A DNA stretch of 20,350 nt from NCBI RefSeq assembly GCF_003334335.1, contig NZ_QOWQ01000052.1; one strand, given 5' to 3'. Origin of the DNA: Escherichia coli. Its GTDB lineage: Bacteria; Pseudomonadota; Gammaproteobacteria; Enterobacterales; Enterobacteriaceae. Positions 18,355 to 20,350 of this stretch are shown here, piece after piece (position 1 is the first letter of the stretch; every line of letters starts with the position of its first letter). A model generated the notes under the pieces. That model was given only the letters and a program-made list of their open reading frames with translations. It had not been told where the DNA came from and ran no database searches. The translations under genes were made by a program, and so were the position numbers.

Positions 18355-19045
18355 CTTGTAAAGCCTTTATCGTTTTTTTATGCTCTGGATTAATATAATC
18401 ACTACATCTATCTGAGCAATCTGTTGTTGATGGACATGTCAACCCATGGTCATTTACAGCCAAGTCTTTTTTATTATCTTCAATCATTTCAGAATGGGAT
18501 AGCTTTACTTTTCTGCCGTACATACCGAACAGATTTAACCCGTAATCTCTAATCTCTTTTTCATAACCCAGCCCTTTCGCCGATCGGCTAACACCAGCGT
18601 CATTTAATTTAGACACTCGACAAAATGCCATACAATGGAAAAATTGATCAGTCCCACCTAAATTTAATCTCTTCATATCTTCATAAGTATCAGATAATAT
18701 ATCCCATGCTCTTTGATGGTTTAGTTGATCTTTTCTTCTTATTAGCGCTACATCTGCGGGACTTAACCCTAATGGATCAATACCATTCACCGGATTCAGC
18801 GGATACGCATACAGACTCCATCCCCCCTCCAGCCCTATCGGGTCCTGAGTGATATACCGCCCCTGCAACGGATCGTAGTACCGGTTCCGGTTGTAGTACA
18901 GCCCCGACTCCTTATCATACTGCTGCCCCGGCAGCCGGTACGGCTGGTGCAGGTGATGCGGGTTCTCTTCATTCAGCTGGTTGCCCCACTCATCATACTC
19001 CCCGCTCCACGCAATGTTTCCATCCGCATCCATCAGCGCCAGCAT
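18335..19045 (-). pseudogene. ylbH: orphan Rhs C-terminal toxin fragment (short core remnant plus variable CT domain)
   Basis: The first ~94 codons (…[15 protein letters not shown]…[16 protein letters not shown]…DPLGL) are homologous to the end of the Rhs core seen in rhsD at ~19960-20242, followed by a distinct ~142-aa Cys-containing C-terminal domain. No SD is visible and the ATG overlaps the ybbC stop (TAATG), so there is no N-terminal Rhs body. Confidence 0.75.
18764..19045. repeat. Rhs core-end direct repeat, copy A (in ylbH)
   Basis: About 230-280 bp aligning to 19960-20242 at roughly 85% identity by eye, e.g. GGGTCCTGAGTGATATACCGCCCCTGCAACGGATCGTAGTACCGG in both copies. Boundaries are approximate. 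Confidence 0.7.
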
Positions 19046-19413
19046 TATTTACTATGTAGGAAATTCAAAACACATCCATTTTTCTTATTAATTTCTATAA
19101 TAAATACACCACCCGCAACTTCATAAGGTAACTTTGCTCCCTCAACAACCCAACTATCTGGTAGTTCCGTAATTAAATATGGTTTTTCTTCTTCTGCAAT
19201 CCGTTCGCCATAGCGATACCTAACATATATTTCAGCTAATTGTATCGCCATTGTTTCAGTTTTTACCGTATTTTTAACAGAGTATTTATCTAAATGTAAT
19301 TTTTCCACATACCTCATAAAAATAATGTTTTCATCAGAACCGTAAACAGCTGTCTCATTACAGGCAAATAGTATAAAAAATGAAAGCATCGAAAATATTG
19401 AACTATATTTCAT
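19045..19413 (-). CDS. ybbC: Rhs-associated immunity-like protein with N-terminal signal peptide / possible lipobox, 122 aa
   Basis: ATG at 19411-19413 with AAGGAG upstream, 39 bp after the rhsD stop. N-terminus [18 protein letters not shown] has a signal-peptide-like hydrophobic segment ending LFAC. AT-rich codon usage. Confidence 0.75.
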
Positions 19414-19452
19414 TGAATCTCCTTATAGGCCCCACTAATAAAAGCACTAAAA

Positions 19453-20350
19453 TTAATCATGATACGGTATGCATACTGAACTCAATCCCGGGACACTATT
19501 TCTGATAAAAATATATTCTCCTTTATTATTAAGCGCCTCAAATCGTCCATCAGGTGTTGCGAGATAAAATGCTTCAAGATTATTATCTTTACTTCTTACA
19601 AGATTTTTATCGCTACTTGAAAAAAATTCATCAACATAATCGCCATGACTATCTGCACCGTGAGTATGATAAGCAGCAACTCTATCTGTACCTGTGGGAC
19701 ATTTTCTTTTCAGAGGATATGACTCCTTTCTTAAATTATCAGTTTCTGCCTTAGATGCAAAATATTTTCCATTAGTATCTTTACAGACAATACCAGAGTA
19801 TTCCATATCATTACATAGAGATCTATTCTGCGTTTCTTTCAAAGCATCTAACGCAGCATCTGCAGTACTATCAAATTTACTTGGTCCTATTATACGTGAA
19901 AGAACACCACAAACTCCCCCCGTACATGCTCCAGATCTGGCATCATCCCAAGTCTGCAATAATCCCATAGGGTCAATTTGTTGTAGTGGATTTAAAGGAT
20001 ACTGATATAAATTCCATCCCCCTTTCAACCCCATCGGGTCCTGAGTAATATACCGCCCCTGCAACGGATCGTAGTACCGGTGACGGTTATAGTACAGCCC
20101 TGATTCCTCATCATGCTGCTGCCCTGGCAGACGGTACGGCTGATACACATGATGCGGGTTCTCCTCATTAAGCTGGTTGCCCCATTCATCATATTCCGCG
20201 CTCCACGCCGTATTGCCGTCTTCGCTGATAAGCGCCAGCGGCAGTCCCCGGTGGTCGCAGTGATAAAGATGAGCTTTTCGCGCCGGTGTGTATTCCGGCT
20301 CCACCTGTCTGGCCAGTTGCTCCACCGTCAGCCCGCACTGCGCAAGCCAC
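19453..20350 (-). CDS. rhsD: Rhs protein, 3' portion (end of core plus C-terminal toxin domain); 5' end lies beyond the window
   Basis: The open frame continues to the window edge (the track's Met at 20325 is internal). It contains the Rhs core-end motif [16 protein letters not shown]...[13 protein letters not shown] followed by a ~168-aa AT-rich CT domain with [10 protein letters not shown] and several Cys. The rhsD assignment rests on the ybbC/ylbH neighbourhood. Confidence 0.7.
19960..20242. repeat. Rhs core-end direct repeat, copy B (in rhsD)
   Basis: Partner of 18764-19045; same orientation, about 1.2 kb apart. Boundaries are approximate. Confidence 0.7.

Follow-up and report, generated by a model that had tools for sequence, protein, structure and literature searches.

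The C-terminal tip of rhsD (rhsD-CT) and the adjoining gene ybbC are bracketed, in the 20,350-nt stretch of Escherichia coli DNA analysed here (the window), by two copies of a 280-nt direct repeat. Each copy consists of the final 93 codons of the Rhs core and ends with the PxxxxDPxGL motif. One copy lies within rhsD and the other occupies the 5' end of ylbH, an orphan (dissociated) Rhs C-terminal tip that has retained its 280-nt core end. The repeat is an already known kind of feature and belongs to a well-known orphan toxin layout. Orphan-tip anatomy together with a history of displacement, in which rhsD-CT and ybbC would have been imported along with their own core end, very likely explains the locus as a whole, and comparison of alleles suggests that the repeat is for the most part a scar left by an earlier tip displacement and not an active switch.

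The duplicated core end

A repeat search of the region returned a single family, whose two copies lie on the minus strand at a spacing of 1196 nt (Table 1) and align without gaps at 80% identity (224 matches in 280). Identity is unevenly distributed: the central 189 nt reach 87.8%, whereas the first 31 nt stand at 61% and the last 60 nt at 65%. BLAST between the copies aligns a 212-nt segment at 86.8% identity (E = 1e-66). The longest perfect run measures 34 nt and the next longest 14 nt. An earlier, sequence-only reading of this DNA had described repeats of 230-280 bp at about 85% identity and about 1.2 kb apart, figures that are accurate for the central part and slightly generous overall. 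At every other offset within 17300-20350 no more than 113 of 280 positions match, which rules out chance as the source of the repeat.

The two copies share the same codon phase and encode 93 residues each, 75 of which (81%) are identical, ending in DPMGL and DPLGL. Similarity breaks off sharply at both ends: the stop codon of ybbC lies directly upstream of the ylbH copy, and 3' of the repeat the rhsD and ylbH tips yield no BLASTN or BLASTP match to each other and are unrelated. The ylbH copy corresponds to positions 1169-1261 of the 1261 in the NCBIfam RHS_core model (2.2e-50) and also matches Rhs_assc_core (TIGR03696, 3.3e-24); matches to the core-end family halt at DPxGL. The core match and the DPxGL ending in both copies bear out the earlier identification of the repeats as the 3' end of an Rhs core. 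The core fragments have a GC content of 54-57%, the tips one of 31-37%. The window is sequence of E. coli K-12 MG1655, with 2 mismatches across 16.4 kb.

Table 1. Features of the rhsD-ylbH region, with positions in the window
Feature	Position	Strand	Match or remark
rhsD (b0497) core, 3' part; gene extends past window end	19960..20350	-	open frame to edge; identical to MG1655 rhsD
Repeat copy D, last 280 nt / 93 codons of rhsD core	19960..20239	-	Pfam RHS PF03527 2.6e-16; GC 54%
14-nt identical run GAGAACCCGCATCA	20150..20163, partner 18954-18967	-	rhsD-like to ylbH-like switch in commonest fused class
Longest identical stretch, 34 nt	20048..20081, partner 18852-18885	-	
rhsD C-terminal tip, 168 aa, DUF4329 toxin domain, stop codon included	19453..19959	-	Pfam DUF4329 2.6e-37; GC 36.5%
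ybbC (b0498), presumed immunity gene of rhsD tip	19045..19413	-	Pfam Imm-NTF2-2 PF15631 6.8e-26
ylbH (b0499, annotated pseudogene), intact 236-aa ORF = 94 aa core end + 142-aa tip	18335..19045	-	
Repeat copy Y, core-end fragment at ylbH 5' end	18764..19043	-	GC 57%
ylbH C-terminal tip, 142 aa, weakly similar to serum amyloid A	18335..18763	-	Pfam SAA 3.6e-4
ybbD (b0501, pseudogene), presumed immunity gene of ylbH tip	17864..18354	-	NF011298 match

The rhsD tip is 52% identical to the tip of RhsB, and YbbC is 56% identical to YhhH, encoded by the gene after rhsB. The two are a predicted pair of DUF4329 toxin and NTF2-fold immunity protein, paralogous to the RhsB tip and YhhH. A search of NCBIfam gave no family for either the rhsD tip or YbbC, and PADLOC gave no match for any of the four proteins.

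The orphan tip and its neighbours

The ylbH gene opens with a 3' fragment of the Rhs core homologous to the full-length rhs gene directly upstream, and it has none of the N-terminal and repeat sequence that delivery requires. PxxxxDPxGL forms the border in rhsD and ylbH alike, after which an unrelated variable tip follows, and the ylbH tip is attached to a full-length Rhs protein in other strains, including O157:H7. The ATG of ylbH overlaps the stop codon of ybbC (TAATG), and the PGAP annotation describes the gene as 'RHS repeat-associated core domain-containing protein, missing N-terminus'.

Similarity of the ylbH tip to the serum amyloid A (SAA) family extends over 91 residues of the Pfam profile, which also matches 5 of 10 homologues at E<=1e-3. 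Alignment with human SAA1 by hhalign gives P = 4e-4 but a probability of 34%, and the four sequence matches in the PDB are all SAA, at weak E values of 0.3-1.5. An AlphaFold2 model of the tip is helical and of low confidence (pLDDT 57.6), and Foldseek comparison of this model with the PDB returned no match with E < 1. The weak similarity accords with published descriptions; a toxin tip of this kind (prok-SAA, Lipocone superfamily) would be expected to show D-x-[FY]-F-H and N-x-x-G motifs and a helical bundle like that of SAA. A word-based protein search retrieved close relatives only, in E. coli, Hafnia and Rahnella.

Immunity genes typically overlap the stop codon of the toxin gene. The start of ybbD overlaps the stop codon of ylbH, and a membrane helix is predicted for YbbD; the ylbH tip is a putative toxin and YbbD its presumed immunity protein. 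The sequence-only reading had spoken of a ylbH module; the pair is not intact here, and the module downstream of rhsD and ybbC is decaying in this genome. Alignment with intact alleles of 163 aa reveals that ybbD is broken by a 1-nt deletion in a T run (7 here, 8 in intact alleles), leaving an ORF of 86 aa that matches positions 1-85 and one of 65 aa that matches positions 99-163 of NF011298, a 163-aa model. Of ylbI, a former Rhs N-terminus, 32 codons are left, and the ATG is gone. In the MG1655 annotation ylbH, ybbD and ylbI are all pseudogenes. The ybbD frameshift was considered as a marker of common descent between K-12 and O157 and was dropped, being a slip in a T run, with an intact ybbD annotated in some K-12-type genomes.

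Two layouts of one locus and the direction of change

Comparison of strains, which the sequence-only reading had proposed as a check, recovered both arrangements. Among 5,426 complete E. coli genomes, 1,767 have the K-12 layout and 964, including O157:H7, have an in-frame fusion of the core with the ylbH tip in the same ybbP..mnmH interval; a query matching both layouts hit 2,729 genomes, approximately the sum of 1,767 and 964. The O157:H7 strain G5295 encodes an intact 1398-aa fusion of core and ylbH tip, and over 429 nt its attached tip shows 1 nt difference from the orphan tip of K-12. In 6 of the 7 fused alleles compared the attached and orphan tips differ by 0-1 nt over these 429 nt; the seventh, DA33137, is divergent and disrupted by IS1. 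The core-end processing motif, DPxGL included, is kept in both K-12 copies, and in-frame fusion preserves it. The toxin gene, ybbD or both are broken in 12 of 13 fused alleles from other strains, mostly by homopolymer slips, and both are intact in a single one. The apparent inverse relation between toxin and immunity integrity is not significant (Fisher p = 0.10, on 13 non-independent alleles).

The core end of the 13 fused alleles, which are not phylogenetically independent, was scored site by site as rhsD-like or ylbH-like. All are ylbH-like from repeat site 90 on, short rhsD-like patches occur in 3, and five mosaic patterns can be distinguished. In the commonest class (CFSAN064035, O111:H8, APEC20/16 and others) rhsD-like bases extend to site 75 and ylbH-like ones begin by site 90, and the right flank is identical to K-12 for more than 1 kb; in the O157/O55 alleles the switch comes earlier, between sites 30 and 41. 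The private bases of K-12 rhsD span from approximately 34 nt upstream of the repeat through its entire length. Those at -34 (C) and -6 (A) from the repeat start are present in none of the 13 fused alleles. Of the 4 sites that precede the repeat, 3 have alternative bases that are shared by rhsE of K-12 and the fused CFSAN064035 and O55:H7 alleles. A haplotype that is rhsD-like at sites 0-82 and ylbH-like at sites 83-145 is also harboured by vgrG-linked rhsE-type genes at another locus; the reciprocal haplotype was not found anywhere searched. The Rhs core end is a mosaic, with exchange between rhs paralogues.

The most likely history is one of displacement and would run as follows. The ancestral allele would have had the ylbH tip and ybbD joined directly to the core, as in the 964 present genomes. 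DNA bearing rhsD-CT, ybbC and its own core end may then have recombined into the locus, with the left crossover within the core and the right one in the homologous core end, probably within the 14-nt run; the old tip would have been pushed downstream and the core end left duplicated. The mosaics favour the order opposite to that of the sequence-only reading, namely displacement of an attached ylbH tip by an imported rhsD tip. The donor allele of the imported segment was not found: for a hypothetical donor, ylbH-like at sites 0-82 and rhsD-like at sites 83-200, the best match (93.5%) was the ylbH copy itself. As an insertion is exactly undone by a deletion at the same crossover point, the junction pattern alone gives no direction, and the argument for polarity rests on few linked sites in a region of frequent gene conversion among rhs paralogues.

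In the reverse reaction the repeat would be the only homology available, and a crossover would excise rhsD-CT together with ybbC and bring the ylbH tip back into an in-frame fusion with the core. The earlier prediction of this outcome agrees with the shared codon phase and the 1196-nt spacing: a crossover anywhere in the repeat is predicted to delete 1196 nt and to yield an in-frame product of 1400 aa. Such an event should be rare from the K-12 pair because the copies are 20% divergent. When a recombinant of this pair with its crossover in the 34-nt run was constructed in silico and compared with the 5,426 genomes, no full-length match exceeded 98.2%, which indicates that no such recombinant is present in the collection. 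The anticipated recombinant junction of the K-12 repeats was not encountered in the genomes searched, and the fused alleles lack the rhsD-private bases.

The converse polarity, in which the K-12 layout came first and the 964 fused alleles arose by deletion between the repeats, more than once and with different crossover points, is rather unlikely. It does account for the commonest fused class, which has the K-12-identical right flank and is precisely what a single crossover in the 14-nt identical run would yield, and the earlier switch in O157/O55 and the five patterns among 13 alleles also speak in its favour. However, the bases at -34 and -6 are rhsE-like in the fused alleles, at positions where K-12 ylbH offers no homologous converting sequence, and the supposedly recombinant haplotype resides elsewhere, in other genomes, in the vgrG-linked rhsE-type genes, so that it looks like a standard subfamily haplotype. 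Furthermore, the crossovers deduced under this polarity fall in identities of 10-14 nt and not in the 34-nt run, where none was seen among the genomes. Very improbable is a reversible switch still operating in natural E. coli, with the five mosaics as repeated flips and homopolymer slips (six Gs in the repeat, eight Ts in ybbD) as additional toxin and immunity toggles; if true, it could explain why both genes are intact in only 1 of 13 fused alleles. It is somewhat less likely than not that ylbH, ybbD and ylbI are nothing but decaying leftovers of rearrangements and that the repeat has no present role in K-12 and will erode. The pseudogene annotations, the frameshifted ybbD, the ATG-less ylbI and the damage in 12 of 13 fused alleles are all in keeping with debris. 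K-12 is not known to have a type VI secretion system, so that a swapped tip would have no obvious delivery route. Set against this, the ORF of the ylbH tip is intact and within 0-1 nt of most attached copies, and the 236-aa product represents a cluster with 1,268 members; both points imply that erosion is recent or incomplete.

A role in expression is also improbable. Here the core end would be kept for an internal promoter or translation start, from which the orphan tip is made inside the cell as a toxin-antitoxin-like module. Main and orphan Rhs tips of Salmonella are reported to be made intracellularly as such a module, and internal promoters, seen in E. coli sequences as well, have been placed in main and orphan rhs genes approximately 89 nt ahead of the sequence coding for PxxxxDPxGL (PMC7043789). 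Genomic SELEX data assign rhsD-ybbC-ylbH to one transcription unit, with RNA polymerase sites near ylbH and ybbD (PMC3946193), and ylbH retains an intact ORF whose TAATG overlap with ybbC is compatible with translational coupling. On the other hand, a consensus scan of the coding strand found no sigma-70-like site in the repeat, and the total number of sites equalled that in shuffled sequence; promoter and terminator counts alike were no different from shuffled sequence and hence uninformative. The frameshift in the partner gene ybbD also argues against a working module in this genome. Expression from the core end is compatible with an origin by displacement.

Relation to known orphan tips

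In Salmonella Typhimurium LT2, rhs-main (STM0291) and rhs-CT-orphan (STM0292) likewise comprise a full-length rhs, an immunity gene and then an orphan tip with a direct repeat of the core end (Koskiniemi et al. 2014, PMC3967940). A crossover between the repeats there joins the orphan tip in frame to the core, with loss of the main tip and the immunity gene, as is predicted for rhsD/ylbH. The LT2 homology extends over 522 bp at 95% identity, whereas rhsD/ylbH has 280 nt at 80% with 34 nt as the longest perfect run, short of the long homology seen there. Recombinant junctions were detected experimentally in LT2 after duplication of the locus; none derived from the K-12 pair occurs in the genomes searched. 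The toxin-switching mechanism invoked for this locus by the sequence-only reading is hence established by experiment in Salmonella, but the homology here is far weaker. LT2 also possesses a type VI system, which K-12 is not known to have, and the gene downstream of the orphan is frameshifted in K-12.

The locus also resembles the tip displacement arrays in which a GC-rich core fragment and an AT-rich tip lie downstream of an intact rhs, and in which a given tip, at one locus, can be either attached or dissociated depending on the strain (Jackson et al. 2009, PMC2935791). In that survey the E. coli clade I loci (rhsA-E type) were generally devoid of dissociated tips and the process was illustrated at a clade IV locus; rhsD/ylbH belongs to clade I, and K-12 has further clade I examples in yibJ, which follows rhsA, and ybfO, which follows rhsC. 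The core fragments were there found to be 'always identical', whereas at rhsD/ylbH they are 80% identical. Orphan cdiA-CT/cdiI pairs downstream of the main gene similarly keep a short upstream coding stretch to a motif, VENN in that case and DPxGL here (Poole et al. 2011, PMC3150448); they belong to a different delivery system, two-partner secretion, and their repeat region is unrelated to that of rhsD/ylbH. Orphan rhs-CT/rhsI modules are described in the same study.

Orphan tips are thought to constitute a reserve of alternative toxins that can be armed by recombination, and the locus represents a textbook-style case in the reference E. coli. The comparison adds detail only, in the form of the split between layouts, the near-identity of the tips and the mosaic core end, and leaves current understanding unchanged; the locus may serve as a natural data set for rates of tip displacement or re-attachment. 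The fused counterpart of K-12 ylbH is RhsD (z0651) of E. coli O157:H7 EDL933, whose C-terminus has been described as serum amyloid A-like (Vazquez-Lopez and Navarro-Garcia 2020, PMC7216683). In O157 the tip lies within a full-length Rhs of 1398 aa and there is neither an rhsD-CT/ybbC unit nor a repeat, whereas K-12 has both.

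The duplicated core end and its setting

Read in reverse complement, the window follows E. coli K-12 MG1655 (NC_000913.3) starting at position 526,644. Only 2 mismatches occur over the 16.4 kb compared, so the window derives from a K-12-like strain rather than from the reference record itself. The two differences lie at window 14393 and 12353, one in allA and one in gcl. Beyond ylbI come ylbG, selU/mnmH and then the allantoin genes.

Features of the rhsD–ylbI region (window positions)
Feature	Position	Strand	Remark
rhsD (b0497)	3' end	minus	runs off window end
Core-end repeat in rhsD	19960-20239	minus	
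rhsD tip	19959-19453	minus	
ybbC (b0498)	19413-19045	minus	
ylbH (b0499)	19045-18335	minus	annotated pseudogene
Core-end repeat in ylbH	18764-19043	minus	
ylbH tip	18335-18763	minus	
ybbD (b0501)	18354-17864	minus	annotated pseudogene
ylbI (b4632)	17497-17402	minus	annotated pseudogene

The sequence-only reading had described direct repeats of the Rhs core end about 1.2 kb apart, and a repeat search of the region bears this out. The two copies align over 280 nt without gaps at 80% identity (224/280 matches on recount) and are spaced 1196 nt apart; no competing offset within 17300-20350 exceeds 113/280 matches. Identity is 61% over the first 31 nt, 87.8% over the central 189 nt and 65% over the last 60 nt, and BLAST of the two copies returns a 212-nt core at 86.8% (E = 1e-66). 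Perfect identity extends over 34 nt at most (20081-20048 / 18885-18852). Both copies share strand and codon phase, and each encodes 93 residues, 81% identical, that end in DPMGL and DPLGL. In family searches both correspond to the very last part of the Rhs core on its 3' side (NCBIfam RHS_core 1169-1261/1261, TIGR03696, Pfam PF03527). The core fragments have a GC content of 54–57%, and all sequence beyond the DPxGL motif is AT-rich (31–37%). With length, identity, spacing, strand and phase measured, the original description is correct.

The feature is an orphan Rhs tip, that is, a C-terminal part, with a retained core end, an arrangement that is well described (PMC3150448, PMC2935791, PMC3967940). 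All the defining features of such modules that can be checked by sequence are present except an intact immunity gene. As the kind is described, lies in the reference genome and has its fragment annotated, the feature is already known: the observation is correct and the hypothesis attached to it reasonable, but neither is new. Core-end copies also occur in K-12 at the orphan fragments yibJ (locus L010, 6222-6923), yibS (L010, 7640-7891) and ybfO (L011, 5721-7154), downstream of rhsA/rhsC. These are 81% identical to the rhsD core end and ∼90–94% identical to their own main genes, so that, among the three K-12 loci, main gene and orphan have diverged furthest at rhsD/ylbH.

Tips and presumed immunity genes

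A DUF4329 domain (2.6e-37) makes up the rhsD tip, and YbbC matches an NTF2-fold immunity protein family (6.8e-26); the two are paralogous to the RhsB tip and YhhH. The 142-aa ylbH tip is unrelated to the rhsD tip, and its sole database similarity is to serum amyloid A (SAA): Pfam gives 3.6e-4, five of ten homologues reach E ≤ 1e-3, a comparison with human SAA1 by hhalign has P = 4e-4, and the four PDB matches are all weak and all SAA. The structure model is of poor quality. Motifs common to the tip and animal SAA are Y-x-D-M-x-x-x-N-x-x-G-x-D-x-[FY]-F-H and N-x-x-G. In agreement with this result, the C-terminus of EDL933 RhsD has been published as SAA-like (PMC7216683), and a 2025 preprint assigns bacterial SAA-like domains to the lipid-head-group enzymes and proposes that they serve as toxin tips (bioRxiv 10.1101/2025.01.14.632903).

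Immunity to the ylbH tip is presumably encoded by ybbD. A membrane helix is predicted in YbbD, which would suit an envelope-acting toxin. In the window ybbD has lost 1 nt from a T run near 18117 (7 Ts versus 8 in the intact 163-aa alleles), which breaks the frame into ORFs of 86 aa and 65 aa that correspond to the two halves of a 163-aa family. The same slip is carried by the O157:H7 and O55:H7 alleles in which the ylbH tip is joined directly to the Rhs core.

The proposed swap and its alternatives

The proposal that recombination between the repeats would remove the rhsD tip and ybbC and fuse the ylbH tip in frame holds as geometry: a crossover at any point deletes a computed 1196 nt, and the predicted product is a 1400-aa protein that retains the conserved segment up to DPxGL. 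Such a fused architecture occurs in other strains at the same locus, between ybbP and mnmH, for instance in O157:H7 G5295, where the ylbH tip ends an intact Rhs protein of 1398 aa. The strain comparison that had been called for finds both arrangements among 5,426 complete E. coli genomes: the K-12 layout in 1,767 (a 3051-nt query covered to at least 80% at a single site) and the fused layout in 964 (the same threshold for a 680-nt junction query, which no K-12-type genome can cover at a single site). A query matching both detects 2,729 genomes, and the separate counts total 2,731. Set against the K-12 orphan tip, the attached tips of six of seven fused alleles show 0–1 differences over 429 nt; the remaining allele, DA33137, is divergent and disrupted by IS1.

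For efficient exchange, RecA-dependent recombination requires ∼25 bp of perfectly matched sequence, and it drops steeply in frequency with divergence when mismatch repair is active. As a toxin-switching mechanism, the proposal has a solid precedent in Salmonella LT2, where recombination between rhs-main and orphan attaches the orphan tip to the core and so arms the tip, following a locus duplication that preserves the main immunity gene (PMC3967940). There, however, the homology spans 522 bp at 95%, whereas the rhsD/ylbH pair offers 280 nt at 80%, including a single perfect run of 34 nt, and lacks the long near-identical homology behind the efficiency of the Salmonella switch. In K-12 the event should accordingly be rarer by orders of magnitude. 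No junction derived from the K-12 pair appears among the 5,426 genomes searched with an in-silico recombinant or among 13 fused alleles compared. A swap in K-12 would also be of doubtful use, with ybbD frameshifted, ybbC lost and no type VI secretion system known in this strain. The switch in K-12 is probably not active.

The retained core end might instead serve expression: Salmonella Rhs tips are expressed in a toxin-antitoxin-like manner from promoters lying inside the core end (PMC7043789), and ylbH starts with an ATG that shares bases with the stop codon of ybbC (TAATG; 19043-19047, minus), compatible with translational coupling, but no promoter-like site stands out in a scan of the repeat. 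The ylbH/ybbD module may also simply be decaying. Across the rhsD locus of 13 other E. coli strains (L001, L003-L008, L016-L021), both genes are intact in one fused allele (XJ6.1), the toxin gene only in four, ybbD only in six and neither in two, most breaks being slips, either in the ybbD T run or in a G run within the repeat; the inverse pattern of integrity is not significant (Fisher p = 0.10, 13 non-independent alleles). The ylbH "pseudogene" is an intact 236-aa ORF. Recurrent lesions in the fused alleles comprise a G6-to-G7 slip in the core-end repeat, T- and A-run slips in ybbD and an IS1 insertion in the tip.

Direction of the rearrangement

The 13 fused alleles were scored at the 56 sites where the two K-12 copies differ. 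From repeat site 90 to the end all are ylbH-like, barring short rhsD-like patches in three; upstream of site 90 there are five patterns, the commonest (6/13) being rhsD-like through site 75. This places, formally, one crossover in a 14-nt identical run (20163-20150 / 18967-18954). By itself the junction fits deletion from the K-12 layout or insertion, since these are exact inverses.

Upstream of the repeat, starting ∼34 nt away, K-12 rhsD carries private bases in a stretch that has no counterpart in ylbH. At three of four upstream sites the alternative bases are common to K-12 rhsE and the fused alleles CFSAN064035 and O55:H7, and the private bases at -34 and -6 are absent from all 13 fused alleles. 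The haplotype that is rhsD-like over 0–82 and ylbH-like over 83–145 also occurs in other genomes, where rhsE-type genes linked to vgrG at the yafV locus match it at 100% over 140 nt, and thus looks like a standard subfamily haplotype, not a special recombinant; the reciprocal haplotype was found nowhere. On these comparisons, the private bases, the vgrG-linked haplotype and the missing reciprocal favour insertion over deletion.

The APEC20/16 fused allele (L006, 5000-5345) equals the vgrG-linked rhsE-type gene (L014, L015, yafV locus) from ∼200 nt upstream of the repeat to about site 145 within it and then diverges, a clear case of ectopic gene conversion between rhs paralogues. Because such conversion occurs, the few-site polarity argument stays provisional.

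The simplest reading, and a fairly probable one, is that the K-12 layout arose by insertion into a fused allele with displacement of its tip. Incoming DNA, comprising a foreign core end, the rhsD tip, ybbC and the start of a downstream orphan, would have replaced the corresponding stretch, and a right-hand crossover within the core end would have pushed the ylbH tip downstream. Tip displacement is the process described by Jackson et al. (PMC2935791).

The ylbI fragment is a stub of an Rhs N-terminus that has lost its ATG (ISGKPAARQGDMPQYGGPIVQGSAGVLIVAPT versus MSGKPAARQGDMTQYGGPIVQGSAGVRIGAPT in RhsD; 78 nt, 82% identity, E = 2.6e-15). It adjoins ylbG, an IS-type helix-turn-helix fragment on the opposite strand; a second rhs gene apparently once started there.
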